Below, piece after piece: positions 9,058 through 55,143 of a stretch of 64,000 nt of DNA (positions within the stretch are counted from its first letter, which is position 1; every line of letters starts with the position of its first letter). The notes beneath the pieces are model-generated. The model was not told where the DNA came from and did no database searches. It was given only the letters and a program-made list of their open reading frames with translations. This stretch comes from Candidatus Woesearchaeota archaeon CG10_big_fil_rev_8_21_14_0_10_44_13 (lineage in GTDB: Archaea > Nanobdellota > Nanobdellia > Woesearchaeales > UBA12501), in the NCBI GenBank assembly GCA_002762985.1, contig PCXZ01000034.1, forward strand, positions 8,431 to 72,430, given 5' to 3'. The translations under genes were made by a program, and so were the position numbers.

Positions 9058-9066
9058 ATCAAGACC

Positions 9067-10077: not shown

Positions 10078-10088
10078 TTTATATGCCC

Positions 10089-11162: not shown

Positions 11163-11166
11163 TCGA

Positions 11167-14152: not shown

Positions 14153-14153
14153 T

Positions 14154-22204: not shown

Positions 22205-22287
22205 TCAGGGCATTAAACGAACATTGTTTATATATTTTTTTGTTGAAAATTGATAATATTAATAAAACAGGGAGGATATCCCAGGAT

Positions 22288-23244
22288 ATGATCCCTTACG
22301 AAATCCACAAGATACTCTTCAAGATAGGGGACAGATTCGCGATCTTCACATGGGGTGTGATGTTCGCAATCGCCTGGATCTTCGCAGGCTATTTCATATA
22401 TATGAATGCGAAGAGCAATAAGGATGTGGATATTAACAAGGCGATGCAGTTCCTGCTTGCAACTTTTGTCGGCGTCCTCTTCGGCTCAAGGCTTTTCCAT
22501 TACTTCGGCCCATGGGGCTATGGAAGCTTCTATGAACGGATAAAACTCATGTTCTCGCCGAAAGGGGGCTGGGTCGCTTACGGAGGGATAATCTTCGGGT
22601 TGGTCTTTTCATATGCGTACTCAAAGATGAAGAAGATAAATTTCCTGAGATACTGCGATATCCTTGCACCGGCGATACCTTTGGGCCTTTTCATGGGCAG
22701 ATTCGGCTGTTTCCTTGCGGGCTGCTGTTTCGGCGCAGAAACCAATGTCCTGTGGGCGATCGAAAGATTCGGGACAACCATCCATCCATCGCAGCTTTAT
22801 GCTGCATTTGCAGAGCTCATCGTCTTCGTTATTATGCTGGAATTGGCCAGGAGGCACAAGGCAGAGAGGAGATATGACGGATATCTGGTCTTCTCGGCGA
22901 TATTGCTCTACTCCATAGCAAGATTCATGACTGAATTCTTCAGGGGGGATTATGGGATTAATGTCTATCATTTCGGATTCACGTTCTCCCAGCTCATATC
23001 GATCATATTGGTCATCTTTTTCGGGACGATGATGCTGCTGAATCAGGGGAAGAGCAGAGGGGCTGTCCCGAAGATAGACAAAGACATGAAATTGAGCTAT
23101 CTGCTCGTCTCCGGCGGAGGCATGCTGAGCATAATCTCGCTGCTGTTCGTCAACATGGACATCGAGATCATGATTGCGCCTTTCGCCTTCGGATTATTGA
23201 TCCTGTTCAGGGGGCTGATGGCCTACACAAGCAGCCATAATTGA
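22288..23244 (+). CDS. prolipoprotein diacylglyceryl transferase (Lgt) family protein, paralog 3
   Basis: Collinear with E. coli Lgt. [13 protein letters not shown] matches [37 protein letters not shown] matches [42 protein letters not shown] matches [24 protein letters not shown] matches IIVEFFRQPD. The start is taken at ATG 22288; the track's TTG start at 22159 reads across a TATA box. Confidence 0.85.
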   Translation: [318 protein letters not shown]

Positions 23245-23313: not shown

Positions 23314-24303
23314 ATGATAGAATATGAGATGCTGAAATATGTCACAATAGGCGGATTAAAGATAGGCTTCTGGTTCACAACACATTATCTCATCGCATGG
23401 CCATTCGCAGCATATTATATCATAAAAGAAACATTAAGGAAAAGAAATTTCGACAAGGGCCTTGATCTTAACAGGATGCTGCAGATGTTCCTCTTGGCTT
23501 TTGTAGGTTCTTTCGTTGGATCAAGGATCTTTGCATTCTATGGTCCCTGGGGCGGAAGTTGTGCAAGCGGGGGGTTTGTAGAAAGGTTCATGCAGATGAT
23601 AAGCCTTGAACAGAAAGGCTGGGTTGCGATAGGGGGGATCATAGGTGGGATCGTCTTCACGTTTGTCTACTCAAAGATCACCAAGTTGAAGTATATGAGA
23701 TATGCGGATATCCTTGCGCCTGCAATAGCTCTCGGATTTTTCATCGCAAGACTGGGATGTTATATCGCCGGCTGCTGTTTCGGCTCCCAGACAGATGTCC
23801 CTTGGGCGATAATAAAAGACAATGTGCCAATACATCCAACACAGCTCTATAACTCCCTGGTAGACCTTGCAATTTTTGTTGTTCTGGTCTGCCTTAGCGA
23901 AAGGAAAGAAAAGAAGAACAGGCAGGATGGCTATGTCTTATCATCGTTCGTGTTCATGTATGCGGTGGGCAGGTTCACGACAGAATTTTTCAGGGGGGAT
24001 TATGACCCTTCAAATTATTTCTTCGGCCTTACGACAACGCAGATAATATGCATTGTATTCTTCCTGATTTCAGCCACATTGATCATAATAAACTCATTGA
24101 AAGAATCCCCGAAAAAGAGGGTAAAGACAGGCTTCCGCATAAGGCCGAAGACCTATGCATTATTGGTTTCAGGAGGCATAATCGCAAACATAGGCGCTTA
24201 TATCATAACCCCTCTGCCTTATCTTGCATTGATAGTCATACCATCGGGCCTTGGAATCTTCTTTTTCGGCCTTACGACAATCTTCTCAAAACCAAAAAAT
24301 TAA
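23314..24303 (+). CDS. prolipoprotein diacylglyceryl transferase (Lgt) family protein, paralog 4
   Basis: [54 protein letters not shown] and [11 protein letters not shown] are the same signature blocks as in paralog 3. Confidence 0.85.
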   Translation: [329 protein letters not shown]

Positions 24304-24321: not shown

Positions 24322-25377
24322 TTGCAGATGCAGATGGCAAAAAAGAAGGCTGAAAAAGAAGCGAAAGCGAATAGGATAAGCAAGACAACGATAATTCTTT
24401 ATGCTGCTGTCATATTGATATCAGTCATTTTTCTCAGCGTGATGAGCGCAGGCCAGTCAAGCGGGGGCGGAGGTGGATGCTGTGACTGCAGCGAATGCAG
24501 GTGCATATGCTGCGAGAGCTGCCTGAATTGCGACAAGGGATGCAGGAAAGATTGCGGTTGTATGTCTGAACAATATGCAGGTGTGGTTGTAGTTGATCCT
24601 TATACAAATGCTGCAATGAATGGCAATGATTATTACTGCAAACGCGGAGGACCGCCGCCAGTGCCTCCTGAGCCGCAATGCGATTGTTATGAAACGCAGC
24701 CATGCCCTCTCATAGAAGGGGTATGCAAGCTTGCAAAGGACAAATGCGTGTATGGGACTGCCGGCGTTGCATACACTTGCGAATGGGAAGGATGCGATGC
24801 TGAAGTTTACGGCCCTCTCTACCAGTTCGACGAGGACAAGTGCGACGGAAATGACAATGACTGCGACGGAGACAAGGACGAAGGATGCGATGAGGACAAG
24901 GATGGTTTCTGCAACAATGATCTCGAGTGCAGCTCTGGAAAATACAACTGCGGAGATTCGGAACCGGGAGTCTCTGTAGGGACAGATGAATGCACAGACT
25001 GCGATGACAGCAATCCTTTGGTTCATCCAAGGGCATCCGAAGTCTGCGACGGAATTGATAATGACTGCGATTATGAGGTTGATGAGGGATGCGAATGCAG
25101 CCCGCTAGGAGCAGAGAAATTATGCGAGAACCAGAAAGGGGTCTGCGCAGGCATGAAAAGGATATGCAAATCATGCACAGACATAGAATGTGATGCTGGC
25201 CAGCACAGCAAATGGATAGGGTGCTCTTACAGCTCATCAAAAGTGGAAGGCTATAAGAAGCCTGAAGGCGATTCATGGTACTGTGCAGACAATCTTGACA
25301 ATGATTGCGACGGAAAGACAGACTGCGAAGACTCCGGATGCTTCCCTTACTGCCAGACGCCTATACCAACTTCTTAA
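24322..25377 (+). CDS. membrane-anchored Cys-rich protein with three 'DNDCDG'-type putative metal-binding repeats
   Basis: A TM helix is followed by GGGGGCCDCSECRCICCESCLNCDKGC. The repeats are KCDGNDNDCDGDKDEGCDEDKDGFC, VCDGIDNDCDYEVDEGCEC and YCADNLDNDCDGKTDCEDSGC. Confidence 0.6.
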   Translation: MQMQMAKKKAEKEAKANRISKTTIILYAAVILISVIFLSVMSAGQSSGGGGGCCDCSECRCICCESCLNCDKGCRKDCGCMSEQYAGVVVVDPYTNAAMNGNDYYCKRGGPPPVPPEPQCDCYETQPCPLIEGVCKLAKDKCVYGTAGVAYTCEWEGCDAEVYGPLYQFDEDKCDGNDNDCDGDKDEGCDEDKDGFCNNDLECSSGKYNCGDSEPGVSVGTDECTDCDDSNPLVHPRASEVCDGIDNDCDYEVDEGCECSPLGAEKLCENQKGVCAGMKRICKSCTDIECDAGQHSKWIGCSYSSSKVEGYKKPEGDSWYCADNLDNDCDGKTDCEDSGCFPYCQTPIPTS

Positions 25378-26462: not shown

Positions 26463-26539
26463 ACAGGTACATGATTATAGATAATCATATCGCAACCGGA
26501 ATATCACGATCAAAACACAATCAAAAAAGAGCAGATAAG

Positions 26540-29500
26540 ATGAACGGAAAAAAGAGGTGCAAGAAAGGCCAGATGGCTGCATTTGTCCTTATAGGGCTTA
26601 TCCTGCTGATAGGCTCTGCTGCGCTCACTTATGTTCTTTATGTTGCAAAAAAAGCCCCAAGCGATCAGTATTTCCTCGAGCAGCTGCCGGAATCCCTTGA
26701 CAAGACTTCCCTTGATACATTGATGAGATCGTGCATAAAAAAAGTCTCTGATCCTGAGCTTATCAGGATCGCCAAGTACGGCGGGACCATAAGTCCGAAA
26801 GTTAATGAATACCGGACCTATAACAAGACAAGATACAGGTATCTTTGCGACCAGAAGCCTGGCTATACTGAATGCGTGAACAAGATACTCACAAGGGAAA
26901 GCATGCAGGAAGAGCTTCAGGACAAGATAACTGTCGAGGTCGCAGCATGCATGAGTCCGGCGCTGAAATTCTATGAGGACAGGGGATATGAGATAAAATC
27001 AAGCCAGCCTAGCACAAAGGTGATAATAGCCCCTGATGATGTCAACGTCATAGTCAATTATCCTCTTGTCGTCTCAAAAGATGCCACAAAGATAAACACG
27101 ATGGATTATTCTGTGCAGTTCGATTATCCTCTCGGCAAATTGTATGACCTTGCCATGGAGATACTGAACAGCGAGAACAGCGCGGGATATTTCAACCAGG
27201 AAGGATGGATGTTCAACCACAGCATAGAGGTGTTGATACAGAAGCACAGGCCTTATCCTGATGTGACCTATAAGCTGAGCAAGTATGACTGGGAGAAGAA
27301 AGAGCATTATGTCTTCAATTTCGCGCTGCAGGGATATGACAGGCTGCCTGAGCTTGCTGGCCTCGGGTCTTTAGGGTCCAGCGGGCAGATGATAGCATCT
27401 CCTGCTGCTGCCAGATCAAATGCTTATGACCAGAACATGGGATGCTGCAACAACAAGAAAGACGGGAATTGTTTTGAGAATGCAGACAAGAGCTCATGCA
27501 TGAACAACGGCCTTGAATTCAGGACAGGGACATGCGCGCAGAGCGGATTCACGTGCAAGCCCATATCAGAGGATAAGTTCGACAACAGGACAGGGCTCTG
27601 CTATGGCAGGAGATGCAATGCGTGCATGAACGGCACATATGAGTATGGGGACAATGTGAACGATCCTTCCACTTACAGCGGCCCTGCAAAGATGAACGGC
27701 GAGTCCTGGTGCTCGTATGAAGGGCCGAGCGGCCAGGGCCTTGATGCAGTGGGCTCAAGGCATTACAAGCAGATCTGCGTAGACGGGTCAATGCTCGTAG
27801 AGGAATGCGGCGATTACAGGACAGACATCTGTGTTGAACAGGCAGAGACCATAAACGGAAGGCAGATGACAAGGGCTGTCTGCAGGCCGAACAGGTGGCA
27901 GGACTGCCATCTCTTCGGGAGCAACCAGGCAGAATGCACAGACACAGGCAAGAGAGACTGCTATTGGAATGTATTCCAGGATAATTTCCTATTGGGGAAA
28001 CCTCGCGATCAGAGCGAACCAGGCACAGTCACTTCATATGAGGAGAGGCATTGCGCGCCTCAAGTCCCGCCCGGATTGAGATTCTGGAATACTTTGGAAG
28101 GGATGCAGGTCTGCGGATGGGCGAACAATTATTATGAATGCGCTGCTCCGGGATGCTTCCAGGAATGGACCGAGTTCGATGCCATCTACTGCGCAATGCA
28201 GGGAGACTGCGGCATCTACAGGAATTACCTCGGAAAGCTGCCTGAGCTCTCATTGAACAACCTATTCCCTGGAGCAGGGCAATTGCCCGGCGTAGGCACA
28301 AGCTCTATGGGCGGAGGATTCGTGAGCGCGCCGAACCTCATCAATAACCAGATATACGAGCTAGTCCTCCCCAATGCGCAGAATTTCGCGCTTAAGACGT
28401 ACCAAAAGGCGGGAAAGCTGCCATCATATCCTAAAGAGTGGTACCCGAAAACAGTCACTCCTGACATGTTCATACATAACTCCCCGAATGATTATTCCAT
28501 GCTTGGCATCATGAGCTTCTTCCAGAGGTTCGTCGATTGGGGCATGGACAAGCTCAACAATATCGAGGATGACATATGGGACCTCATAGTCCATGGTGAA
28601 TCCATGGAATGGACGGCTCTTGGCGTGAGCATGTGCAATGTCTGGACTCCGAGCACTTCAGCGATCGACTGCGAGAAATGCAACGGCAATCCTTACAGGC
28701 CATGCACGGAATACAAATGCAGGAGCCTTGGCATGTACTGCAATTATGAGGAGATAGACGGAGTGGGCAAATGCTCTTCATATGAGACGTCCACTATAGG
28801 AAAGCCTGTTGTGCAGTTCGACGGCCAGATAACGCCTGGCTACACTACCAAAGGATCGACATTGGCTTCTTCAGATACTGCTTATGTGGGAAAAGAGATA
28901 ATCGAAGCATTGAAGACAGATTATACATTCCAGATAAAGACGAACAGGGAAACCCAATGCATGCTCACTGTAGTGCCCGGAGCATCGTTCGGAATGAACC
29001 CTCCTTTCCCAGGGACAGCGACAGACTACAGCTTCAGGACAAAGCATAATCTCACAATACCTTATACGACTGCTGACGGGCTCTCTGTGATGCTATTGCC
29101 TCTCCAGCTGATGAGCATGATCAGTTTCAATCCTGACCAGATCTGGGCGATATTCAATAACATGGCGAACAGGATAATAACTTATATGGAAGACCTGACT
29201 GATGACTGCAATGACTGCAATGACTGGGATCCGAGCACTGGTTGCGGTAACATCGGCCTTATGGCCCTGAGCAATGATGACTGCGATGAGATGGAAGACA
29301 AGACTGACCAGATCAAGAGCATGTTCTCGCAGATAACTGATTTCTGGCAGAATACAGTAAAGCCGGAAGTGGAGAAGTGGCTGAACACGGCGCAGAAGAA
29401 TGCCATCGATGAGGTATTGAATTATGCCGTTGCCCAGCACAAATACCATGCGTTCGTGAAATGCAGGGACAGGGGGGGGAATGAGAATGAAGTAGACCTT

Positions 29501-30277
29501 GATTTCATAAGGTTCAAGATCAGCCCCAATCCATTGGCTGCTGCACAGGTCCCGGACGGGCCTCCTATTGTAAGGGCGATCGAGCCTCAGAACTGGACAG
29601 AGCAGAGCCCTGATGAAGCAGGCAGGAAAGAGGTCTATGTTTACCTTAATCAACTGTCTGAATGCGCTTATGGCACATCAGACCAGGAATTCATTTACAT
29701 GAATAACAAGTTCCAGTGCCCGAAATCAACATATTACGGCGGCCTTGCAGGAGGATATGTCTGCAATTCAAGCAGACCTTTCGATGAATTGAAGAACCCT
29801 GGCGCGCCGATATACATCAAATGCATAGACCATCCTGAACATTATGAGACATTCAGCTTCAGGCTTGAGCAGGGGACAGAATACGCAGGACCGCAGAGAT
29901 CCGAATGGATAAAGCCAATCACAGAAGGCGAACCAGGCACAGTCATAATAAAGGACCCTAAAACGATAAACCAGAGCATGGAGAAGATAACCGTACCGAG
30001 CATGAGCGTGAAATTCTTCATTGAATTCAAGAGGCAGGAGAACGACAATGAGAAGGCTCTTGAATGCAGATATGCGCCTACGCAGGCAGGGGCCTCTTCA
30101 GGCACGACATTCGTCGATCCCAAGAGCGGAGGCACGCAATGCGACAACTGCACAGCTCTGCTGACTGCGACAGGCACGGACTATTATGTATGGTGCCATT
30201 TCAAGACAGAGCAGAGGAACGCAGGCCAGGCATACCAGTATGTGCTGCAGGAAGCCGCTGCTGAAGCCACGACATGA
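26540..30277 (+). CDS. giant Cys-rich secreted protein, paralog B (~1245 aa from ATG 26540), with a class-III/type-IV-pilin-like signal peptide
   Basis: N-terminal MNGKKRCKKGQMAAFVLIGLILLIGSAALTY. It shares the same conserved blocks as paralog A (RHYKQICVDG...CGDYRTDICVEQ, VCRPNRWQDC, CTEYKCRSLGMYCNYEEIDGVGKCS, CRDRGGNENEVDL). Confidence 0.7.
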   Translation: MNGKKRCKKGQMAAFVLIGLILLIGSAALTYVLYVAKKAPSDQYFLEQLPESLDKTSLDTLMRSCIKKVSDPELIRIAKYGGTISPKVNEYRTYNKTRYRYLCDQKPGYTECVNKILTRESMQEELQDKITVEVAACMSPALKFYEDRGYEIKSSQPSTKVIIAPDDVNVIVNYPLVVSKDATKINTMDYSVQFDYPLGKLYDLAMEILNSENSAGYFNQEGWMFNHSIEVLIQKHRPYPDVTYKLSKYDWEKKEHYVFNFALQGYDRLPELAGLGSLGSSGQMIASPAAARSNAYDQNMGCCNNKKDGNCFENADKSSCMNNGLEFRTGTCAQSGFTCKPISEDKFDNRTGLCYGRRCNACMNGTYEYGDNVNDPSTYSGPAKMNGESWCSYEGPSGQGLDAVGSRHYKQICVDGSMLVEECGDYRTDICVEQAETINGRQMTRAVCRPNRWQDCHLFGSNQAECTDTGKRDCYWNVFQDNFLLGKPRDQSEPGTVTSYEERHCAPQVPPGLRFWNTLEGMQVCGWANNYYECAAPGCFQEWTEFDAIYCAMQGDCGIYRNYLGKLPELSLNNLFPGAGQLPGVGTSSMGGGFVSAPNLINNQIYELVLPNAQNFALKTYQKAGKLPSYPKEWYPKTVTPDMFIHNSPNDYSMLGIMSFFQRFVDWGMDKLNNIEDDIWDLIVHGESMEWTALGVSMCNVWTPSTSAIDCEKCNGNPYRPCTEYKCRSLGMYCNYEEIDGVGKCSSYETSTIGKPVVQFDGQITPGYTTKGSTLASSDTAYVGKEIIEALKTDYTFQIKTNRETQCMLTVVPGASFGMNPPFPGTATDYSFRTKHNLTIPYTTADGLSVMLLPLQLMSMISFNPDQIWAIFNNMANRIITYMEDLTDDCNDCNDWDPSTGCGNIGLMALSNDDCDEMEDKTDQIKSMFSQITDFWQNTVKPEVEKWLNTAQKNAIDEVLNYAVAQHKYHAFVKCRDRGGNENEVDLDFIRFKISPNPLAAAQVPDGPPIVRAIEPQNWTEQSPDEAGRKEVYVYLNQLSECAYGTSDQEFIYMNNKFQCPKSTYYGGLAGGYVCNSSRPFDELKNPGAPIYIKCIDHPEHYETFSFRLEQGTEYAGPQRSEWIKPITEGEPGTVIIKDPKTINQSMEKITVPSMSVKFFIEFKRQENDNEKALECRYAPTQAGASSGTTFVDPKSGGTQCDNCTALLTATGTDYYVWCHFKTEQRNAGQAYQYVLQEAAAEATT

Positions 30278-43997: not shown

Positions 43998-45026
43998 TTA
44001 GCCGCAGTTTCCTGCAGCCTGTGCGCCTTCTGTGCTCAACTGCTGTCCGCAGCTTGCCGGCGCTTTGCTGAAAGCAGAGCATATGCTTGTCTTGTAAGCA
44101 TCTGGTGTCCTTCCGCCGCTGTATTCTGCCCCGTTTATGATGAGCATTGGCGAGCCCTGGACGCTGTATTTTGCGTTCAGCTCAACTTCTTTTGCCAATA
44201 ATGCAAGTGCCTCGTCCTTCTGGCATGCGCTTATCTTGGCTGTGTCTATGCCTCTTGCCTTTGCGACAGCTTCCCAGCACTTGTCTACATTCGCTGAGGT
44301 GCATTTTGAGTTCACATCAGAGATGTAATCCCAGAACTTTGCCTTGTCATATTTGTACAGGCATAGTTCCCTGACGCCCTCATTAAGCTCCTGTATGCCG
44401 TGCATTGAGCAATATTTGTTATCTTGGTCCAGGCAATAATCAGCTCCTCCTCCCCTGTAATTTGAATATATCACATAATGCGGCTGTATTTCTACATCAG
44501 ATCCCATCGCCTTGACCACAGGTATGATCCCCTCTTCTGCCTGGTTGCCGTATGGGCAATATGCCATTGTGAAAAGCATCACTTCAGGCTTGTCTGCCTT
44601 TGGTATGTCTGTTGCAGGCTGCTGCTGATCTGCTGTTGATGCTGTTGCAGGCGCTTTCATATTTATCGCCTGCGGGAAAAGTATCGATGCGTCTTTTGTG
44701 ACATAAGACTCAAAGGTCTTTCCCTGTATGTTCAGCGTTATGTTGTATAGGCAGCTCTGTCCCTTGAGATCGCTTATCGAGTCGATCGTCGCGACTGTCT
44801 GGCCCTGCAGGACTGCCTTGTTTATGAAGTCCAGAGTCATATCTGAGACTTTTTTCTTCGGCAGCTCTTTTGCTGATGAGATTGAGAATCCATTGGTTAT
44901 CACGGAAACCACCAGCAGGATCGCCAGAACCACTGCTGCTATCTTCCATGTTTTGTCGCTGCAGCAAACTTTTTGAGATTTGATCTCATGCACTTTTTTT
45001 TCGTGCGTCATGTGTTGTTTAACCAT
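43998..45026 (-). CDS. membrane-anchored DsbA-like thioredoxin-fold protein
   Basis: N-terminal TM (IAAVVLAILLVVSVI). The C-terminal ~200 aa have a DsbA-like pattern (MAYCPYG...; ...GSPMLIINGAEYSGGRT...). The protein is Cys-rich. Confidence 0.5.
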   Translation of the reverse strand: MVKQHMTHEKKVHEIKSQKVCCSDKTWKIAAVVLAILLVVSVITNGFSISSAKELPKKKVSDMTLDFINKAVLQGQTVATIDSISDLKGQSCLYNITLNIQGKTFESYVTKDASILFPQAINMKAPATASTADQQQPATDIPKADKPEVMLFTMAYCPYGNQAEEGIIPVVKAMGSDVEIQPHYVIYSNYRGGGADYCLDQDNKYCSMHGIQELNEGVRELCLYKYDKAKFWDYISDVNSKCTSANVDKCWEAVAKARGIDTAKISACQKDEALALLAKEVELNAKYSVQGSPMLIINGAEYSGGRTPDAYKTSICSAFSKAPASCGQQLSTEGAQAAGNCG

Positions 45027-45445
45027 ATTTATGCACCCCTTATTGCTGTTTTTTATCGTATCTCTTTTTATATTTTATGGATTTTTGGCATGTTTTAGGC
45101 CATTACTTTCCCTTTGCCTCATTATTATTTTATCCCCTTGAGCCCGGGAACATCGAACCTGTCATTGGCTATGAGGTATAAGGAGAAGAAAAGAAGCAAT
45201 CCTCCGAAAACTATGAGCATTACGCTTAATGCCCTTCTTTCTGAGTTTATTATCAGGACGCCTATGTCGGCTATTACGCCCCCCATGAGGATCAGCATAT
45301 ATACAAAATACCTGTTCTTAAGGGAGAAGAATGATTTCGGCTCTTTTGGCTCCTTCTGGTCTTTTTTAACCTTTTTACTGATTTTAACACCCTTTATAAG
45401 TTTATTTGGGAAATATATATAAAGCTTTTTGTTTTTAGGCTGTTT

Positions 45446-46078
45446 ATGGCTGGATCAAGGAAAAAAGCGCTTGCATTGATAAGCTCAGGGATTGACAGCC
45501 CTGTCGCTGCAAAACTGATGATCGACAAGGGCGTTGAAGTTGTAGGCGTCCATTTCGACAACAGGCCGTTCACAGATGCAAGGCAGATAACAAAGACAGC
45601 AAGGATATGCAAAGTCATAGGGATAAAGAGGCTGTATGTCGTGAAACACGGCCTCAGCATGGGCGACATCATAGGGAAGATAGACCGGAGGTTCACCTGC
45701 CTGATGTGCAGGAGGATGATGTTCAGGATAGCTGAGAGCATCGCCAAGAAAGAGGGCTGTGATTTCCTGATAACGGGAGAGAACATGGGCCAGGTGGCTT
45801 CCCAGACATTGGATAATCTGACTGTATGCTCGAAGGCCGTGAAGGTCCCTATCCTAAGGCCCATATTGTGCAATGACAAGCAGGAGACTGTTGCAATCGC
45901 AAAGGAGATAGGCACTTATGAGATCTCTATAGAGCCTCCCGGATGCTGCAGGCTCGTCCCCCAGTTCCCTGCCACAAGGTCCAATCTGAGACTGATAGAG
46001 GATGAAGAGAAGAAGTTTGACATTGCAGAGACTGTTTCAAAGAGGATGGAAGATATTGAGGTTATGGATTTCTCCTGA
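45446..46078 (+). CDS. ThiI-like PP-loop ATP pyrophosphatase domain protein (lacks THUMP/rhodanese domains)
   Basis: PP-loop SSGIDSPVA (SGGxDS) plus the ThiI-type CLMCRRMMFRIAE...ITGENMGQVASQTLDNL. Only 210 aa. Confidence 0.65.
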   Translation: MAGSRKKALALISSGIDSPVAAKLMIDKGVEVVGVHFDNRPFTDARQITKTARICKVIGIKRLYVVKHGLSMGDIIGKIDRRFTCLMCRRMMFRIAESIAKKEGCDFLITGENMGQVASQTLDNLTVCSKAVKVPILRPILCNDKQETVAIAKEIGTYEISIEPPGCCRLVPQFPATRSNLRLIEDEEKKFDIAETVSKRMEDIEVMDFS

Positions 46079-46138
46079 TGATAGGATGATGGATAGACAG
46101 TAAAATTTAAATATGAAAGAGGGTTAAAAGCCATTATA

Positions 46139-47155
46139 ATGCAAAAAAGAGCCCAGCTGAGCGTATTCATAGTGGTTGGATTGATAATCCTTGCCGCAAT
46201 AGGTTTTCTTGTCTATATCAAACAGCCTAAAGCAGAGGAAGTGCCCGCGTCGATGGCTCATGTGAAGATTTTTGTCGACCAATGCGTCAAGAAGGTCGGC
46301 GAGGATGCCTTGGTGAATCTCGGATTAGGCGGTGGATATCTTTATTTTGATAATGTGGAGGCATTGCCGGCCTATTATGGGGATACTGCTTACTGGTACA
46401 TCGCAGGATACAATTTCGCCCCGAAGGATGAGATAGTCAAGGGGCAGATTGACAGGTATATGAAAGAGAACCTCAACTCCTGCCTGAACAATTTTGATGA
46501 TCTGCATGAGAACATAACATTCGGTGAAGTGGAGAGCAGTGCAGACATATTGCCTGACAAGGTCATATTCAATATAGATTTTCCTGTCACATTGAACGAC
46601 AGAGACATACAAAAGACAATATCATCTTTCTCGGGTGACGTGAACATAAGATTAGGCAGGATACTGAGCGCAGGAAGGAAAGTGATTGCCAAGGAGATGG
46701 AAGATCCTCTCAGCATAGACCTTACTTATCTCTCCCAGCTTGATCTGCCTGTGACTGCTTTCCATTATGACGACAGGATACTCATCTATATGATAAGGGA
46801 TTTTGATTATTCTGCAGAGAACCCTTACAGGTTCTTATTCGCGAGCAGGCTTGGCAAGGACAAGGAATTGGGCAACAGGCCTCCTTACTTCACAAACCTG
46901 GAGTTCATACTTGCTGCTGTCGGAGAGGATGTAAGCGCCAGGATAGAAGCGGTCGATCCTGAAGGCGACAAGATTATCTATAATGCAATAACACCCTTGT
47001 TTTTAATCGGGAATGACGGTTCGATAAGGTTTACGCCAATGGAAGATGATGTCGGAGTCTATGATGTTGTTGTAGAGGCAGAAGACAGCAAAGGGGCTGT
47101 GACTGCTGAAACACTGCATGTGGAAATATATCCTGAAGGGACTGCGCTGGAGTGA
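46139..47155 (+). CDS. 338-aa secreted protein with a class-III/pilin-like signal peptide; stand-alone version of the N-terminal domain of the giant Cys-rich proteins
   Basis: N-terminal MQKRAQLSVFIVVGLIILAAIG. The next ~250 aa align with the N-domains of 16436 and 26540 (C[IV]KK...GLGGGYL; D.P..LNDRD...). Confidence 0.6.
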   Translation: MQKRAQLSVFIVVGLIILAAIGFLVYIKQPKAEEVPASMAHVKIFVDQCVKKVGEDALVNLGLGGGYLYFDNVEALPAYYGDTAYWYIAGYNFAPKDEIVKGQIDRYMKENLNSCLNNFDDLHENITFGEVESSADILPDKVIFNIDFPVTLNDRDIQKTISSFSGDVNIRLGRILSAGRKVIAKEMEDPLSIDLTYLSQLDLPVTAFHYDDRILIYMIRDFDYSAENPYRFLFASRLGKDKELGNRPPYFTNLEFILAAVGEDVSARIEAVDPEGDKIIYNAITPLFLIGNDGSIRFTPMEDDVGVYDVVVEAEDSKGAVTAETLHVEIYPEGTALE

Positions 47156-47159
47156 GAAG

Positions 47160-50100
47160 ATGAAAAGACTGATTGTTTTGATGCTGGTCGGGATGATGCT
47201 TGCAGGAGCTGTTATTGCTGCAGAAGAGACAGCACAAGTCGGTTATGAAAAATGCCTTGATGACAAACAGACAAAACCATCAGAGATGGCTAAATGCCTG
47301 GAAGGATTCAAAGACTGGGACAAGGTAAAGCCTGACGACCTTGCTCAGATACTGGCAACTTGCAATGAATGCATCCAGAAGATAGACTGGTCGAAAATAA
47401 AGATCCCGGGCAGTGTTGACCCAAGTACTGCAATAAAAATACTCGGCTATGCCGGTGCGAATGGAAAATTGAACGATCTCGGCCAAGAAAACTTGAAAAT
47501 CGCTTTGGGAAAAATATGCAGGGTATCTGTTGAAAGCATAAACATCCTGGGTAATGTCGGACAGAACATAAGATTCGAGGATCTGCCTCCTACGCTGACA
47601 GTAGGCGACAGATACAATTACCCTCTTCAGGGCGTACAGAGCATAAAGATAGAGGGGGACATTGTTTCTGTTTCTTACAGCGACACGGCAATATTGCCTC
47701 TTAATTTGAAGATAAACGGCCAGGATGTTACATGCGACAAAAGCGCAAAAGACGGCTGCAAAGGCCTTAATGTTTATTGTAAAGGCAACGAATGCAAAAT
47801 CATTGTGGCAAATGGCCCATTGAAGATCGGGGACCTTCCATTGATAGCCAGCGGAGAGATAACCTATAAGCAGGGTGAGGGCGGGAAGATAGAACTCACG
47901 AAAATAAACGCTAAAATAGCTCCTAGAGACTGTAAATACCCAAGTATTTTTAACATGGACGGGAAAAAGATAATCATACCTTATGTAGCACTACCAACAG
48001 AAGCGGAAATCAATCTTGAGCTGACAAAGTGCGGGACAGCAAATAATATCCCCTGCTTAAAGATAAATAAGGCGACAGAAGGAGTTATATTCTTCACCCC
48101 CCAACCCCCTGACCATCTAGGCAGGCTTGTTGCTGGGAAAGGAGGGATAACAAATGGGTTTATTGCATCAGACAGCAGCATCGTTTCAGTCAGCCAGGGA
48201 GACGCAACATATTATGATTACACCATATGCAGTAAAAACCCCGATGAAAAATGTGATTTAAGCAAGGTATTCCCCATCTTCTCAGGCAGATTCACAGTAG
48301 GCTATTCAAACAATAAGCTGAGCAGCGCATTATTGAATGAAGGCAGCACAGCGGTATTCGGGAATGGGTACACAAGAAGCCTTAAAGGCACAAGCTATGT
48401 TGGCTTTGAGGTCCCACAGGGCGTGAATGTGGATACATCTGATGGGATGATGCCGTCTGAATATTCGCAGGCATTCCTTGCGATGAAAAACAAGCTTGAT
48501 CTGCGCCAGAATGCGGTCATACTTCTGCCGACAGGCGCTGTAGGTTTTGCTGCTGATGGAGGCAGCATAGAGGTCGCTGCAAGGATAGGGAAGAAAGATG
48601 AACCCTGGAGACAGGTGGCAATCAATCCAGGTGCCTATGCAGGCACTTTTGACATAGACACAGAGGTCATAGGCATTGAGAGGGTGGATGTCGGCATAGG
48701 TGCATGGAAGCCCGATCTTGCAAGGAAACAGGAAGGAGGAAGATTAGGCTCATTATACCAGTCAAACAGCGCAGAACCGAATATAGGAAAACTCACTTTC
48801 AGCCTGAATCAGGATGGGGGCATAAGCGTAGCTGAGGACAGGAATTCCAACCAGGCAGGCACTTATACAAGAGTAGATGGGATAAAAGGCATCCCGCCCG
48901 GCAAAGGGGATAATGTGGCAAGAGTGGACGGCACTGTCCTGATGATGCCAGGAGGGGTTGTGTTCGGCATGGGCAATCTGGGCAGCGGAGAGGCGAGTGC
49001 CGCATTAAAAAATAAGATAGTTGATTACATGAAACAGAACAAGCTCCCGGATATCGCAAAAACCGCCCTGATATTCGCTCCGATAGACCCGACAATAACT
49101 TCGCAAAAAACATTCGAATGGGTTAGTGCTTTCTCAGGCTGCAAACCTGAAGATAAGTCAGATGCGTGCAATAAGTTCAATGAAGAGATAGGTAAGATTG
49201 TCGCTGATCCGAATGTGTACAGCCTCCCAATACCTTCGCCCGTAAATCCTACAAGAATTTTAGGCACAGGACAGCCTGGTGAAATCGAACCAGGGGCATC
49301 TGGTGTTCCTTTAGGGGATATCCCTCTTAAATTGCAGGAAGCATGCAATTCCCCTAAGACGGCTGCAGAGTGGAAAGTCTGCAGGGAAGCGTGGAATAAA
49401 GGATGGCAGGAGCTTGGGCCAAATGTCATGATGGAATACTGCGCTTATGTCCCCCGCCAGGGAATGAACAGGAATTCTGAGATACAGCAGAACCTATGCC
49501 TGATGGGGATAAACACGGGGACGATCGACGGCTGGTATGGAAGGATGACAAGAACTGGAGTTAGGGAATTCCAGCAGACATTCAATGCTCTGCCTGCTGA
49601 CACAAGGGCAGGCTGCAACTGCGTATTCGGCCAGAGTAGATTGAGAGTTGACGGTGTTTTCGGCGATAATACCCTTTGCGCTTATAATTGCGTAGTGAGC
49701 AGCGGATATTCCGGCAAAGTGCAGAATGCAGTCATAGTCGCAAAGCAGGCGAACAGGCCTGTGGCAACAGAGGACTTCCAGGCTGAGCCGAAGAATACAG
49801 GTGCAGGAGAACCGGCTGGTGTAGCAGCGTCCGTAAAGCCGGCAGAACCTGTTACTCCTGCTACTGCTCCTAAACCTATATGTCCTGCTGCTTGTCCTAG
49901 AAAGGATGAAGTTTGTAATGAAGCAACAGGAATTTGCGGACCCAAATCAGCTGCAATAGTAAGTCCAGTTGCGCCTGTTGCTGCAAAAACACCATCTTTA
50001 CCTGCTCCTCCAACTAATCTCCCAAAAACTGCAGTCCAATATGTATCTGGAGAGGGGAATACCCAGGTTGTGGGGGTTGATATCACTAAATTACCGGATA

Positions 50101-50336
50101 ACCCTAATGTTAAAGGATCGCAAACGCCTGGAAAGGTAACTACGGCTAAAAGCGGCATGCAAGCGATGGTAGCAGCAGCATTATATGGTGATCCAAGAGG
50201 TAAAACCGTGCAATTGCAGGTTATAACTGAAGGAAACAAAGTAAGAGTAGATTGTAACAGATTTGTTAGGCCTGCAGGAGTAACTGATGCAAACTGGTGC
50301 AATTTCCAAAAGACTTATTGTGGAAAATCCTGTTAG
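47160..50336 (+). CDS. 1059-aa secreted protein with a C-terminal peptidoglycan-binding-like (PG_binding_1-type) module and a Pro/Ala linker
   Basis: Signal peptide MKRLIVLMLVGMMLAGAVIAAEE. The module IDGWYGRMTRTGVREFQQTFNALPADT...VDGVFGDNTL fits the [DN]G.[FY]G..T..A[LV]..FQ ... DG..G..T pattern. A PAEPVTPATAPKP linker follows, then a C-terminal domain. Confidence 0.6.
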   Translation: MKRLIVLMLVGMMLAGAVIAAEETAQVGYEKCLDDKQTKPSEMAKCLEGFKDWDKVKPDDLAQILATCNECIQKIDWSKIKIPGSVDPSTAIKILGYAGANGKLNDLGQENLKIALGKICRVSVESINILGNVGQNIRFEDLPPTLTVGDRYNYPLQGVQSIKIEGDIVSVSYSDTAILPLNLKINGQDVTCDKSAKDGCKGLNVYCKGNECKIIVANGPLKIGDLPLIASGEITYKQGEGGKIELTKINAKIAPRDCKYPSIFNMDGKKIIIPYVALPTEAEINLELTKCGTANNIPCLKINKATEGVIFFTPQPPDHLGRLVAGKGGITNGFIASDSSIVSVSQGDATYYDYTICSKNPDEKCDLSKVFPIFSGRFTVGYSNNKLSSALLNEGSTAVFGNGYTRSLKGTSYVGFEVPQGVNVDTSDGMMPSEYSQAFLAMKNKLDLRQNAVILLPTGAVGFAADGGSIEVAARIGKKDEPWRQVAINPGAYAGTFDIDTEVIGIERVDVGIGAWKPDLARKQEGGRLGSLYQSNSAEPNIGKLTFSLNQDGGISVAEDRNSNQAGTYTRVDGIKGIPPGKGDNVARVDGTVLMMPGGVVFGMGNLGSGEASAALKNKIVDYMKQNKLPDIAKTALIFAPIDPTITSQKTFEWVSAFSGCKPEDKSDACNKFNEEIGKIVADPNVYSLPIPSPVNPTRILGTGQPGEIEPGASGVPLGDIPLKLQEACNSPKTAAEWKVCREAWNKGWQELGPNVMMEYCAYVPRQGMNRNSEIQQNLCLMGINTGTIDGWYGRMTRTGVREFQQTFNALPADTRAGCNCVFGQSRLRVDGVFGDNTLCAYNCVVSSGYSGKVQNAVIVAKQANRPVATEDFQAEPKNTGAGEPAGVAASVKPAEPVTPATAPKPICPAACPRKDEVCNEATGICGPKSAAIVSPVAPVAAKTPSLPAPPTNLPKTAVQYVSGEGNTQVVGVDITKLPDNPNVKGSQTPGKVTTAKSGMQAMVAAALYGDPRGKTVQLQVITEGNKVRVDCNRFVRPAGVTDANWCNFQKTYCGKSC

Positions 50337-50386
50337 GCCTGATTCGTTTCGAAACATTTAAAATATCCCTTCTTCTTTGATTATTT

Positions 50387-51784
50387 ATGCCGCTGAAACT
50401 CTTCAATACATTAACCCGCAAGACCGAGCTCTTCAAGCCCATAAAGGCCGGAGAAGTAAAGATTTACAGTTGCGGCCCTACAGTCTATGATTTCGCCCAT
50501 ATAGGCAATTTCAGGGCATATGTATGCTCAGACATATTAGTCAGGTATCTCGAATACAAGGGCTTTAAGGTCACCCAGGTCATGAACCTTACAGATGTGG
50601 ATGACAAGACAATAAAAGGATCGATGAAGGAGAAGATCAGCCTTGATGAGTACACAAAAAGGTACAAAAAAGCGTTCTTTGATGACATAGGATCCCTGAA
50701 CATCAGGAAAGCGGACTTCTATCCTGAGGCCACGAAGACCATAAAAGAGATGGTTGAACTTGTGAAGACGCTGATGGATAAGGGCTTCGCATACAAGGGG
50801 GATGACGGCTCGATATATTTCTCAGTGAAAAAATTCAAGGATTACGGCAGATTGGCCCACATAGACACAAAAGGCCTTAAGTCAGGAGCAAGGGTCAAGC
50901 AGGATGAATACGACAAGGAACAGGTCAATGATTTCGCATTATGGAAAGCCTGGGACAAGAATGATGGGGATGTCTTCTGGGAGACAGAACTCGGAAAAGG
51001 AAGGCCAGGATGGCATATTGAATGCAGCGCAATGTCCATGAAATACCTTGGGAAGAGCTTTGACATCCACACTGGAGGCATAGACCTAATCTTCCCGCAC
51101 CACCAGAACGAGATAGCGCAGTCTGAAGCTGCAACAGGCAAGAGATTCGTCAATTATTGGGTGCATAATGAATACCTCATGGTAGACGGCAAGAAGATGT
51201 CCAAGAGCCTCGGCAATTTCTACACATTGAAGGATCTCCTAGACAAGGGCTATAAGCCGAAGGCCATACGCTACCTTCTGCTGTCAGCGCATTACCGCAC
51301 TCATCTGAATTTCACAGAGGAAAGCGTCAGTGCTGCAGAGCATTCTGTGCAGAGGCTGCTGGATTTCATGGAAAAGCTTGGGACGCTGAAAGGAGATAAG
51401 GAGAACAAAGAGATAAAAACGCTCCTAGGGGATATCAAGAAGAAGTTTGAAGAAGCCATGGATAATGACCTGAATGTAAGCTCTGCGCTCGCATCGGTAT
51501 TCGAGCTCGTCAATAAGGTCAATAAGCTCATCGCAGAGGACAGGATAGGCAGGAAAGACGCCCAAACTATAATGGGGCAGATGGATGATTTCGACAAAGT
51601 CCTGGGAATCCTGGAAATAGAGAAAGAAGATGTCCCGAAGGATATAATACAGCTCGCAAAAGACAGGGAGGAGGCCAGGAAAAACAAGGATTTCAAGAAG
51701 GCAGACCGATTAAGGGATAGGATAAAAGAAAAAGGTTATGTCCTTGAGGACACGCCTCAAGGAACAAAGGTAAAAAAAGTTTAA
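50387..51784 (+). CDS. cysS: cysteinyl-tRNA synthetase
   Basis: HIGN (HIGH variant) ...HIGNFRAYV; Zn-binding CGPTVYD...; KMSKS motif; CysRS-specific WHIECSAM; 465 aa. Confidence 0.9.
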   Translation: MPLKLFNTLTRKTELFKPIKAGEVKIYSCGPTVYDFAHIGNFRAYVCSDILVRYLEYKGFKVTQVMNLTDVDDKTIKGSMKEKISLDEYTKRYKKAFFDDIGSLNIRKADFYPEATKTIKEMVELVKTLMDKGFAYKGDDGSIYFSVKKFKDYGRLAHIDTKGLKSGARVKQDEYDKEQVNDFALWKAWDKNDGDVFWETELGKGRPGWHIECSAMSMKYLGKSFDIHTGGIDLIFPHHQNEIAQSEAATGKRFVNYWVHNEYLMVDGKKMSKSLGNFYTLKDLLDKGYKPKAIRYLLLSAHYRTHLNFTEESVSAAEHSVQRLLDFMEKLGTLKGDKENKEIKTLLGDIKKKFEEAMDNDLNVSSALASVFELVNKVNKLIAEDRIGRKDAQTIMGQMDDFDKVLGILEIEKEDVPKDIIQLAKDREEARKNKDFKKADRLRDRIKEKGYVLEDTPQGTKVKKV

Positions 51785-52554
51785 TTTCCTCGTTCTGATT
51801 GTCTTCCTGCATGTCCTCCAGAATATGCGCCTGCCATCGGACCATCCTTGCATGAATCACGCATAGTGTTTTCAGCACGCTCTTCTAAAGATGTACTTTT
51901 AAGGGCTGCCACAACAATTCTTCCGCCGAACAGTTCATATCTCTTCACATTAGGGTGATCGAATAATGTGTGTGTGCCTTGATTTCCATTTAGGTTGAAC
52001 CCTTCTTTGGGCCTATCCTGCATTATATGGTCAATTACCCTATAATTTATGAATAGTGTTTGATGCAAAGCCGGATCAGGTACTGCAAAATATTCTGTCG
52101 GTCCCTCGGAATACTCAACCACAATATGTTGCCCTTTCGCACCTTCCCTCCAGAGATAGTTAAGGAACTCTTTTATATCAGCTTTAGGTATGCCTGATTC
52201 TTCGATTCTCGCCTTCATATCTAACATATCTTTTCTTTTGACTTTCAGATCAAATAATTCGCATGCTTCCCCTACAAGATTGGTTATTGTCAGATTCTCT
52301 CCAGAAGTATTGGGATTAAGAAACACGCCCCATAATCCATCTAAAGGAGGACAATAATTTTTCTGGGGGTGTGAATGTAAATCAGCATCTCCACCTGTAT
52401 CCCCGCAATAAAGGCTTCTTTTTGGTGGGTTTGGGCTAACAACTTCACAAGGGGCCATTACACCACCTGCCTTCTCCTCATGATAAAACTCCAACCCTTC
52501 ATTTATGTGATCTCTTTCGTCTATTATAGGTCTTCTTTTCATTATCATTCTCAA
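51781..52554 (-). CDS. hypothetical protein; contains an HSHP-containing motif reminiscent of JAMM/MPN (the conserved Ser is replaced)
   Basis: 257 aa and convergent with cysS (4-nt overlap). ...EGLEFYHEEK...GDTGGDADLHSHPQKNYCPPLDG.... I make no confident family call. Confidence 0.4.
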   Translation of the reverse strand: MRMIMKRRPIIDERDHINEGLEFYHEEKAGGVMAPCEVVSPNPPKRSLYCGDTGGDADLHSHPQKNYCPPLDGLWGVFLNPNTSGENLTITNLVGEACELFDLKVKRKDMLDMKARIEESGIPKADIKEFLNYLWREGAKGQHIVVEYSEGPTEYFAVPDPALHQTLFINYRVIDHIMQDRPKEGFNLNGNQGTHTLFDHPNVKRYELFGGRIVVAALKSTSLEERAENTMRDSCKDGPMAGAYSGGHAGRQSERGN

Positions 52555-52680
52555 TCCCTCCTATTCACTACTACCCATAAAAAACTTCAGATATTTATTT
52601 AGGTATATAAAATTAACGGAGATTCTGCAGGAATCACGGCCTTTTTTCGCCAAGAAACTGGGACGAAAGCCTGTTTTGGA

Positions 52681-55143
52681 TTATCCATTCTTCGCTTCTT
52701 TTATTATCTCGACATCCACATTGACATAAGAATTGGCGCATTTCATGCTGGCCTTCCCGAAGGTTATCTCCTGGGCATTCGAGGCTGCCTTCAGGTCATC
52801 CAGGACGATCTCAAGCAGTTTCCTGTCTTCGGCCTTGATATCTATTGTCAGCTTCACAGGCGTCTTCAGGGAGACCTGCTTTGCGGATTTCTCCTTCCTC
52901 ACAACGGCAAGTATATCGACCAGAAGATCTCCTGCCTTCTCTGCTTTCCCGTCAATCAGTCCGGGGTCAGGCTCAGGCCATTTGCTGACATGTATGCTTT
53001 TCACACCCTCCAGCTTTGCAAAATGAAGATGGTATATTGATTCTGTTATATAAGGCATTATCGGCGCCATCAGTTTCAGCACTCCGAGCAATGAAGTATA
53101 GAGGGTGAATTTAGCAGACTCTATGTCCTCCTTGCTGTATCTTGCAGGGTTGTATATCCTGTCCTTGATTATCTCGAGATAATTGTCGCAGAGGATCTGC
53201 CAGAAGAACTTCTCTGCCTCTGCTTTTGTCTTCGAGTATTCATACCCGTCAAAGTATTCTGTGCATTCCTTAACTATGTTGTTGAACTTCGTGAGCACCC
53301 ATAGATCAATGGGCCTTATGCTCTTCAGGTCCATCTTCCTGCATCTGTAATCAGCGATATGCATCATTGCGAATTTTGAGGCATTCCACAGCTTTGTGAT
53401 CATCTTCTTTCCCGTGACAAGGTCCTTCTCCTGATAAGGCAGGTCCTCTCCGAGCTTCGAGCCAGAGGCCCAGAATCTCAGGCAGTCTGCCCCGTACTTT
53501 GCTATGACGGCCTGCGGCTCTACTACATTGCCTTTTGATTTTGACATCTTCTTGCCGTGCGGATCAAGCGCCCAGCCCGAAATCATGACATCTTTCCATG
53601 GGTTTATATTGTTCTGCATCTGGCTCTTGACCAATGTATTGAAAAGCCAGAAAGTGATTATGTCGTGCGCCTGCGGCCTTAGGTCCATGGGGTAGAGCTT
53701 GTCATACATGTCAGGGAAAAGCGATGCTGCAATCTGGGGGGATAAGGAACTTGTCGCCCATGTGTCAAGGACGTCTGATTCAGGCTCGAATTCAGAAGAT
53801 CCGCACTTGCACTTTTTCTTTGGCTTGTCCTTGACTGGGTCAACTGGCAATTGGGACTCGTCAGGCAATATCACCTCGCCGCACTTACTGCAGTACCACA
53901 CCGGTATTGGTATCCCGAAATGCCTCTGCCTTGATATGCACCAATCCCACTGCAGGCCCTTTATCCAGTTGTCATACCTGTTCTTCATATGGTCAGGATA
54001 CCAGTTAAGCCTGTTGCCTGCTTCCATGAATTTATCCCTGAGATCAAGATATCTTATGAACCATTGGTTTGTCTGCAGTATCTCAACTGGCGTCCCGCAT
54101 CTCTCATGGACATTCACCGCATGTTTTATCGGTGTCTGGGAAAGAAGCAGTTTGTGGTTCTTAAGGTCCTCGATTATCGCTTTCCTTGCCTCTTTTATGG
54201 TCTTCTCCTCATAGCCAGGAGCCAACTCATTCATCCTGCCATCTTTTGTTATGGCTACCTTAAGGGGCAGCTTGTGCTTGTAATACCATTCCATGTCTGT
54301 CTGATCGCCGAAGGTGCAGCACATCACTGCTCCTGTGCCTTTCTCAGGATCCGCTTTCTCGTCAGGAAGTATAGGGACTTCGTGGTTGAACAGCGGAACT
54401 TTTGCCTTCTTTCCGAAAAGTTTCCTGTACCTCTTGTCATCAGGATGCGCGAATATCGCTACGCATGCAGGCAACAGCTCAGGCCTTGTAGTGGCTATGA
54501 TGAGGTCAGAGCCGTCCTCAAGCTTGAACACTATGTCATTGAAGAAGCTTTCAAATTCCCTGTCCTCCATCTCTACTTGGGCTATGGCTGTCTGGCATTC
54601 AGGGCACCATAATGTCGGCGCTTCTTTCCTGTACTCCCTGCCTGCCTTGTATATGTCGATGAATGATTTCTGGGATATCTTCCTGCAGTGATTGTCTATC
54701 GTCGTGTAATATATGCTGAAATCGGCGCTCGTCCCTATCCTCTTCCAATCGGATATGTATTTCGGTCTGACTTCAGAAAGCACTTCGAGGGTCAGGTTTA
54801 TGAACTCATCCCTGCCCATCATGGTCCCCTTGACCTTCTTCATCGACTCGACAAGCCTTATCGTCGCAAGGCCGTTGTCGTCTGTGCCGAAGGGATAGAA
54901 GACATTAAAGCCCCTCATCCTCTTGTAACGGGCTATGAAATCCTGCTGGGAATATGAGAAAGCATGACCTATATGCATCTTCCCTGAAACGGTCGGCGGA
55001 GGGGTGTCTATGCTGAAGATCTTCTTCTTCGACAGAGGATCAAACTTGTATATCTTCTCTTTCTCCCAGAATGACTCTATCTTAAGCTCTTCTTTAAGAG
55101 GATCATAGTTCTGGTTTTCCTGTTTCTGCTGAGCTTCTGCCAT
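52681..55143 (-). CDS. valS: valyl-tRNA synthetase (archaeal type)
   Basis: Class I aaRS with TPPPTVSGKMHIGHAFSYSQQDFIARYKRMRGFNVFYPFGTDDNG, a Val-type P-P-P-x-x-S-G HIGH region. It also has KMSKSKGN and a CP1 editing insertion. 820 aa. Confidence 0.7.
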   Translation of the reverse strand: MAEAQQKQENQNYDPLKEELKIESFWEKEKIYKFDPLSKKKIFSIDTPPPTVSGKMHIGHAFSYSQQDFIARYKRMRGFNVFYPFGTDDNGLATIRLVESMKKVKGTMMGRDEFINLTLEVLSEVRPKYISDWKRIGTSADFSIYYTTIDNHCRKISQKSFIDIYKAGREYRKEAPTLWCPECQTAIAQVEMEDREFESFFNDIVFKLEDGSDLIIATTRPELLPACVAIFAHPDDKRYRKLFGKKAKVPLFNHEVPILPDEKADPEKGTGAVMCCTFGDQTDMEWYYKHKLPLKVAITKDGRMNELAPGYEEKTIKEARKAIIEDLKNHKLLLSQTPIKHAVNVHERCGTPVEILQTNQWFIRYLDLRDKFMEAGNRLNWYPDHMKNRYDNWIKGLQWDWCISRQRHFGIPIPVWYCSKCGEVILPDESQLPVDPVKDKPKKKCKCGSSEFEPESDVLDTWATSSLSPQIAASLFPDMYDKLYPMDLRPQAHDIITFWLFNTLVKSQMQNNINPWKDVMISGWALDPHGKKMSKSKGNVVEPQAVIAKYGADCLRFWASGSKLGEDLPYQEKDLVTGKKMITKLWNASKFAMMHIADYRCRKMDLKSIRPIDLWVLTKFNNIVKECTEYFDGYEYSKTKAEAEKFFWQILCDNYLEIIKDRIYNPARYSKEDIESAKFTLYTSLLGVLKLMAPIMPYITESIYHLHFAKLEGVKSIHVSKWPEPDPGLIDGKAEKAGDLLVDILAVVRKEKSAKQVSLKTPVKLTIDIKAEDRKLLEIVLDDLKAASNAQEITFGKASMKCANSYVNVDVEIIKEAKNG

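Follow-up and report, generated by a model that had tools for sequence, protein, structure and literature searches.

The window analysed here, a stretch of 64,000 nucleotides of archaeal DNA, encodes at 47160..50336 an orphan protein of 1058 amino acids that contains, as judged from its sequence, a genuine peptidoglycan-binding module of the PG_binding_1 family. The module is encoded at 49470..49703, is of the three-helix PGBD type and lies about 245 residues from the C-terminus. The protein that carries it is predicted to be secreted, is rich in cysteine and belongs to a fast-evolving family from which N-glycosylation sequons are almost absent. We tentatively propose, with rather less than even confidence, that it is a secreted, disulfide-rich and N-glycan-free contact protein that would dock on murein, as an adhesin rather than as a lysin. 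The gene and the parts of its product are the following:

47160..50336 (+): orphan big-protein gene, from the open reading frame (ORF) list; 1058 amino acids, 32 Cys, predicted to be secreted, carrying the PG_binding_1 module
47160..47222 (+): predicted Sec-type signal peptide, MKRLIVLMLVGMMLAGAVIAA followed by EE (Kyte-Doolittle hydropathy; putative cleavage site)
47223..48365 (+): N-terminal region, helical and then beta-rich, shared with the orthologue at locus L082 (BLASTP, 30% identity, 428 columns, E=3e-19)
49470..49703 (+): PG_binding_1 module, amino acids 771-848, predicted as helix 771-781, loop 1, helix 795-809, insertion, loop 2 and helix 836-848
49527..49550 (+): first binding-loop motif, D-G-W-Y-G-R-M-T, amino acids 790-797, read from the sequence
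49596..49649 (+): insertion of 17-18 amino acids with two Cys, DTRAGCNCVFGQSRLRV, between helix 2 and loop 2 (alignment with 12 PG_binding_1 domains)
49650..49673 (+): second binding-loop motif, D-G-V-F-G-D-N-T, amino acids 831-838, read from the sequence
49767..50024 (+): Pro/Ala-rich linker, probably disordered, holding a four-Cys knot, CPAACPRKDEVCNEATGIC (sequence; no regular structure in the low-confidence full-length model)
50025..50333 (+): small Cys-containing C-terminal domain with no transmembrane anchor (sequence and hydropathy; no family match)

An earlier reading of the window from its letters (the sequence-only reading) had noticed a PG_binding_1 pattern at 49400-49700 and had suggested a search with the profile PF01471. 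That search bore the claim out. The Pfam match covers amino acids 774-814 and profile positions 7-46 of 57 (E=1.4e-7), scores 32 bits where the gathering cut-off is 23 bits, and corresponds to window positions 49479..49601, inside the interval that had been named. PG_binding_1 is the sole Pfam family in the protein (scan at E<=1), and NCBIfam gives only a weak match, to the SleB model, through the same stretch. The pseudomurein-binding repeat (PMBR) profile, which the sequence-only reading had named as the other one to try, finds no match in the protein at E<=1.

Past the insertion the domain is completed by VDGVFGDNTL (amino acids 830-839, window 49647..49676), a stretch made up of the final loop and the first residues of helix 3. 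In endolysin binding domains whose function has been confirmed the loops follow the consensus D-G-(Pho)2-G-K/N-G/N-T (PMC3352856). Both loops of the module, DGWYGRMT and DGVFGDNT, fit this consensus, and the second repeats exactly the motif that the same work gives for gp229 of phage 201phi2-1. An AlphaFold2 model of amino acids 751-856, built with 29 aligned PG_binding_1 segments, has a mean predicted local distance difference test (pLDDT) score of 78.6, lower in the insertion, and folds as the three-helix bundle that defines the PGBD clan. Foldseek searches with this model bring the same kind of proteins to the top with non-significant E-values, and we take the fold match as corroboration of the module, not as independent proof.

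The match is also confined to one place in the loci compared. A PG_binding hidden Markov model (HMM), built from 250 segments found by phmmer and run on ORFs from all six frames of the window and 80 DPANN loci (1.26 Mb), matched four ORFs only, namely the 1058-aa protein and three at the equivalent genomic position in its closest relatives; therefore the match is not due to chance. An exhaustive phmmer comparison with 1.84 billion representative proteins gave 130 matches at E<=1e-3, all restricted to amino acids ~765-825 apart from the self-match and the match to P0002, a spurious repeat protein. Those matches that were checked are multi-copy PG_binding_1 proteins, which rank high because each carries many tandem copies. 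Outside the module no homologue was found among the 1.84e9 proteins. P0002, the top non-self match, has 1134 amino acids and is made of ~20 near-identical repeats of ~55-60 residues (..GGSPSHQPSPTRSSGKKGAVGVPPTNPPLLGRVGRR..) that align to amino acids 116-149 in 19 pieces; it was rejected as a relative since it resembles a translated DNA repeat array. With the whole 1058-aa protein, a word-indexed search returned only the query and a scan of a genome collection returned nothing. The orthologue alignment A1 likewise found only the protein itself, and a metagenome scan with the partner alignment A2 yielded three short contigs and no new orthologues.

The host is a DPANN archaeon of the Woesearchaeota. 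The window encodes Nop56/58 and fibrillarin, and its valyl-tRNA synthetase (ValRS) is 73-80% identical to those of metagenome-assembled genomes (MAGs) labelled Woesearchaeota, Nanoarchaeia or Nanoarchaeota; the archaeal assignment made by the sequence-only reading follows from these genes. Some related MAG contigs are labelled bacterial in public records. The gene at 47160..50336 is also called in three independent public assemblies.

Secretion, which the same reading had proposed, is consistent with the N-terminal segment, where a charged n-region is followed by a hydrophobic core and by small residues ahead of EE. On the Kyte-Doolittle scale nothing else in the protein is a hydrophobic segment, and a C-terminal hydrophobic segment or transmembrane anchor was sought by hydropathy and not found. 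The protein has a pI of 7.9 and 32 Cys. Cys counts are even in all three complete members of the family (32, 30 and 14), and six Cys are invariant in the alignment of the N-terminal region (A4). A full-length AlphaFold2 model from the single sequence, with a mean pLDDT of 37.6, is unusable for a fold search; it draws residues 1-133 as helical, 145-605 as beta-rich and 610-816, which include the module, as helical, followed by a disordered Pro/Ala linker at ~850-955 and a small C-terminal domain. Export, disulfide bonding and tethering to the cell surface would be the expected state of the protein.

The amidase or peptidase domain that the sequence-only reading had thought might adjoin the module did not come to light in Pfam, NCBIfam, PHROGs, a PDB sequence search, the exhaustive homology search or structure prediction, the full-length model of which has the low pLDDT given above. 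No catalytic family was found in the 1058-aa protein in Pfam, NCBIfam or PHROGs (E<=1 or 0.1), and no SLT-type/GH23 family in Pfam or NCBIfam. The PHROGs matches are endolysin families only, and they are reached only via the binding module. Among PDB entries the single sequence matches only SleB, again via the module, and a two-sequence profile of the N-terminal region finds no relative. Pfam scans of most window ORFs of at least 150 amino acids revealed neither a wall hydrolase nor AglB.

The gene stands in a conserved block, with two neighbours that bear on the function proposed:

46139..47155 (+): partner gene, 338 amino acids, with an N-terminal membrane segment and a C-terminal immunoglobulin (Ig)-like domain (Big_9/cadherin-like; Pfam, alignment A2)
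43998..45026 (-): membrane-anchored thioredoxin/DsbA-like neighbour (Pfam VSR_TRX, Thioredoxin_4 and DSBA; syntenic in L007)

The stop codon of the partner lies 4 nt before the ATG of the big-protein gene, in the same orientation, with a GGAG upstream of that ATG, and homologues of the partner adjoin the big protein at loci L007, L082 and L083. Gene order at L007 matches that of the window: ValRS, cysteinyl-tRNA synthetase (CysRS), big protein (1026 amino acids), partner, ThiI and thioredoxin-like protein. When the syntenic blocks are compared (window 43998..55143 against L007 6079..15903), identity to L007 is as follows:

ValRS: 76%
CysRS: 72%
ThiI: 64%
Thioredoxin-like protein: 51%
Partner (338 amino acids): 30%
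Big protein: not alignable

By this comparison of sequences the big-protein gene is the fastest-evolving member of the block. No significant similarity of the 1058-aa protein to its counterparts at L007, L005 and L067 was found by alignment or profile comparison. The connection is made by L082, where a partner 53% identical to that of the window is followed by a 1028-aa protein homologous to the first ~400 amino acids of the window protein (the BLASTP match listed above); the L082 and L007 big proteins are in turn 25% identical over 187 amino acids (E=2.5e-7). Since the L082 protein is related to both, all of them belong to one fast-evolving family, partial members of which occur at L005, L067 and L083 (coordinates: L082 1127..4213; L007 9939..13019; L005 13525..15948; L067 4501..5412; L083 1394..2572). 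The orthologues are strongly acidic, with pI values of 4.1-4.3, in contrast to the 7.9 of the window protein.

What this family has kept, across orthologues otherwise diverged beyond alignment, is a deficit of N-glycosylation sequons (N-x-S/T, x not P). The counts in the six members are:

Window protein: 0 observed, 6.9 expected (P about 0.001)
L082: 0 observed, 8.35 expected
L007: 0 observed, 10.9 expected
L005: 1 observed, 6.6 expected
L067: 0 observed, 2.7 expected
L083: 0 observed, 2.8 expected

Pooled over the six members, one sequon is observed against 38.5 expected (z=-6.5), whereas the reverse motif S/T-x-N occurs at a normal frequency (35 against 38.1 expected) and no other residue shows a comparable deficit. 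In five of the six N-x-S/T triplets of the family the middle residue is proline, and N-P-S/T is the form that oligosaccharyltransferase does not accept. Sequon counts are normal in cytoplasmic proteins, in the partner protein and in the two other large orphan proteins of the window. They are enriched in a 1299-aa surface protein of a related Woesearchaeon (L030 6054..9953; 73 against 28 expected), and normal or enriched in other DPANN surface proteins. We read the deficit as selection against N-glycosylation acting on the family. Avoidance of this kind implies that the protein would be exposed outside the membrane, to oligosaccharyltransferase, and would have to remain without glycans; a conventional S-layer glycoprotein is made less likely by it. 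As a signature of selection, sequon avoidance is unusual, and a limited search of the literature turned up no precedent.

Modules are present in the family beyond the window. PG_binding_1 scores above the Pfam cut-off in L005 (26.1 bits) and L067 (25.5 bits) whereas the L007 score, 16.5 bits, is below it. The distance from the module to the C-terminus is ~210-225 residues in L007 and L005, against ~245 in the window protein, and in L007, L005 and L067 the module is shortened, with the invariant pattern MGY..V..FQ...G...DG..G.QT..A.L..C. Common ancestry of these modules is suggested by the shared position, the shared Pfam family and the bridge through L082. The sequence-only reading had raised horizontal acquisition as an alternative, and a recent event finds no support: the nearest relatives of the module are only ~35-50% identical (phmmer), its G+C (GC) content of 0.50 is unremarkable beside the 0.47 of the gene, and three related MAGs have modules at the equivalent position. 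If the module did come from bacteria, the transfer would thus be older than the subclade.

Several other features of the window were recorded. Four paralogues of Lgt (PF01790), the prolipoprotein diacylglyceryl transferase of bacterial lipoprotein maturation and unusual in an archaeon, occur within 17 kb. They had prompted the idea that the 1058-aa protein is a lipoprotein, which was rejected as it has no lipobox. Two large Cys-rich proteins without a Pfam family have N-termini (..KKAQLAAFIIIG.. in the 1088-aa and ..KKGQMAAFVLIG.. in the 1268-aa protein) that resemble that of the partner, MQKRAQLSVFIVVG.., and that also fit [KR]-[GA]-Q followed by a hydrophobic stretch, as in archaeal type IV pilin-like (class III) signal peptides. 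No pilin HMM gave a match to the partner, the 1088-aa and 1268-aa proteins having been scanned against Pfam only. An island of low GC (0.30-0.33, the window as a whole having 0.44) is possibly a cluster of modification or glycan genes that was acquired. These features are:

7433..8320 (+), 19688..20434 (-), 22159..23244 (+) and 23314..24303 (+): Lgt paralogues
16436..19702 (+): 1088 amino acids, 43 Cys, no Pfam family
26471..30277 (+): 1268 amino acids, 49 Cys, no Pfam family
24322..25377 (+): 351 amino acids, with 43 Cys, some of them in a run, GGGGGCCDCSECRCICCESC, that follows a membrane segment, and with a putative metal-binding motif of the MopE type (PF11617)
8000..12100: low-GC island encoding a methyltransferase, two radical SAM proteins (one with a SPASM domain) and a family-2 glycosyltransferase
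13673..14759 (-): HEPN-domain gene adjoining a nucleotidyltransferase (Polbeta/NTP_transf_2) gene, an arrangement typical of HEPN-MNT toxin-antitoxin modules

Taking the module, the predicted export and the sequon deficit together, we propose a docking model for the 1058-aa protein. In the model, the protein would be exported via Sec and oxidised to a disulfide-bonded form, a step that the adjacent DsbA-like protein could possibly catalyse for so Cys-rich a substrate, and would then be held at the cell surface through the membrane-anchored Ig-domain partner. The two D-G-(hydrophobic)2-G-x-x-T loops would dock it onto the murein-type glycan strands of a neighbouring bacterium. That the module is aimed at the wall of a bacterial host or prey, as the sequence-only reading had suggested, is plausible, and the same has been proposed for other proteins of Woesearchaeota and Nanoarchaeota (PMC8204110, PMC9723730, PMC12352652); murein would be the putative ligand, and adhesin the putative role. 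An extension of the model, which we regard as doubtful, makes the protein a fast-diversifying, arms-race factor of host contact that would dock one Woesearchaeal lineage on bacterial murein and would be kept glycan-free because glycans are not tolerated during contact or penetration.

A number of observations weigh against docking on murein. The modules of the orthologues lack the first DG loop, and in L082, the closest homologue, no module is detectable. With a module degenerate in some members and undetected in another, murein binding cannot be what the family conserves as its core function, and on sequence grounds the module is an accessory element, which is the main weakness of the proposal. 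A profile of the orthologue module block scores on the window protein no better than on shuffled copies, so that the modules are linked only through the Pfam profile and not by direct similarity. The fold match is partly circular, because the AlphaFold2 model was built from an alignment of PG_binding_1 domains. The ~750 N-terminal residues, for which the full-length model gives no reliable structure, could hide an enzyme.

These points lend themselves to other explanations. The module could be a degenerate or re-purposed three-helix bundle that serves as a protein-protein element or as an element of the archaeon's own envelope, contacting the Ig partner or its own surface glycans, and does not bind murein. 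The short orthologue modules without loop 1 and the absence of a detectable one from L082 are what such a history would leave, the pairing with a membrane-anchored partner is conserved, and the same fold is found in the pro-domains of matrix metalloproteinases (MMPs) and in the secretion-system protein EpsAB, which appear among the structural neighbours at ranks 12-16. The copy in the window, however, has kept the two DG loops in canonical form, its second loop matches exactly that of a phage binding domain confirmed by experiment, and it scores well over the Pfam cut-off; MMP-type domains, as far as we know, have no DG loop motifs. We judge re-purposing somewhat unlikely. Less likely still is a true peptidoglycan hydrolase, an antibacterial or predatory lysin whose catalytic domain has diverged beyond recognition within the 750 N-terminal residues. 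Bacterial and phage copies of the module are nearly always joined to wall enzymes, modular hydrolases are reported as a prominent feature of Nanoarchaeota, Woesearchaeota carry GH23 transglycosylases, and the N-terminal part is the one that could not be modelled. Yet no catalytic family (Pfam, NCBIfam or PHROGs, E<=1), no PDB relative (by the single sequence outside the module, or by the N-terminal profile) and no homologue outside the module among 1.84e9 proteins was found, and so extreme a turnover of the N-terminal sequence would be unusual for an enzyme core.

Two further explanations concern the ligand and the assignment itself. As a rule the DPANN in cultivation have archaeal partners, and it has been suggested that Woesearchaeota live in syntrophy with methanogens, so that the module might bind the pseudomurein, chemically related to murein, of a methanogen partner (Methanobacteriales or Methanopyrales) in place of bacterial murein. 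We consider this very improbable: the known pseudomurein-binding profile is silent, the sequence and structural neighbours are all domains of murein enzymes, and we know of no documented binding of PG_binding_1 to pseudomurein. An artefact, either a chance profile match or a bacterial contig, for instance of the candidate phyla radiation (CPR), mistaken for an archaeal one, could be argued from the bacterial-type genes of the window, including the four Lgt paralogues, and from the bacterial labels on some related MAG contigs. It was rejected and has hardly any probability left, given a score above the gathering cut-off with both motifs present and the fold confirmed, Nop56/58 and fibrillarin in the window with Woesearchaeota as the nearest ValRS relatives, and a locus assembled independently in three data sets. 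Docking on murein, with the reservations stated, is the reading that we retain.

If the extended model holds, the protein would serve as a molecular handle, evidence that bacteria and not archaea are the partners of some DPANN. Physical contact between DPANN and bacteria has so far been argued from genes for lytic transglycosylases and hydrolases. The 1058-aa protein brings in another architecture, in which a canonical module for binding murein stands, without a recognisable enzyme, in a rapidly diversifying, sequon-free and Cys-rich protein that is predicted to be secreted and is paired with a membrane-anchored Ig-domain protein. The module is small and can be expressed alone as a fluorescent probe, which makes the hypothesis directly testable, and such a probe could serve to identify the bacterial partners.

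Wall-directed proteins of archaea have been the subject of several studies. Modular peptidoglycan hydrolases with PG_binding_1, two haloarchaeal examples of which kill bacteria, occur in ~5% of archaeal genomes and are 'particularly prominent' in Nanoarchaeota (PMC12352652). Woesearchaeota and Pacearchaeota have large extracellular lytic-transglycosylase proteins for which binding to bacterial walls has been suggested (PMC8204110), and a 'vampiristic' model for Woesearchaeota was built on GH23 enzymes and pore-forming toxins (PMC9723730). The 1058-aa protein resembles the modular archaeal hydrolases (Woldo and Danwoldo of Halogranum salarium, and M23 and other hydrolases of Nanoarchaeia; PMC12352652) in being archaeal, predicted to be secreted and equipped with PG_binding_1. 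These hydrolases, for which action on bacterial walls has been proposed or shown, join a catalytic to a binding domain, often with PG_binding_1 in tandem, whereas here a single module is found and no catalytic domain was detected by the searches described. With a wall-binding domain and a signal-peptide-like segment and no detected catalytic domain, the protein falls outside the definition of a modular hydrolase, and the survey of PMC12352652 would miss it. To the large lytic-transglycosylase proteins of DPANN (fam00969) it is similar in lineage, in size, in its predicted extracellular location and in having an element that would be directed to bacterial walls; it differs in that it has the binding module only, without an SLT/GH23 domain, and in that its family is much smaller and evolves far faster.

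From the bacterial and phage enzymes with PG_binding_1 (the SleB N-terminal domain, phiKZ gp144/KZ144, the AP3 endolysin, L,D-transpeptidases and the Streptomyces Zn DD-peptidase) the window protein differs by the Cys-containing insertion of 17-18 amino acids that precedes loop 2. Its module is present in a single copy, ~770 amino acids into an orphan archaeal protein of 1058, and adjoins no recognisable catalytic domain. With archaeal S-layer and surface glycoproteins the protein shares a large size, an archaeal origin, a predicted signal peptide and fast evolution, and it is set apart from them by its lack of a C-terminal anchor and by the single sequon of its family against 38.5 expected. 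From the PMBR proteins (PeiW and PeiP) it differs in failing the pseudomurein-binding repeat profile. A wall-binding module in a secreted Woesearchaeal protein is thus of a known kind, while the architecture around it, the rate at which its family evolves and the avoidance of sequons differ from those of the systems described.

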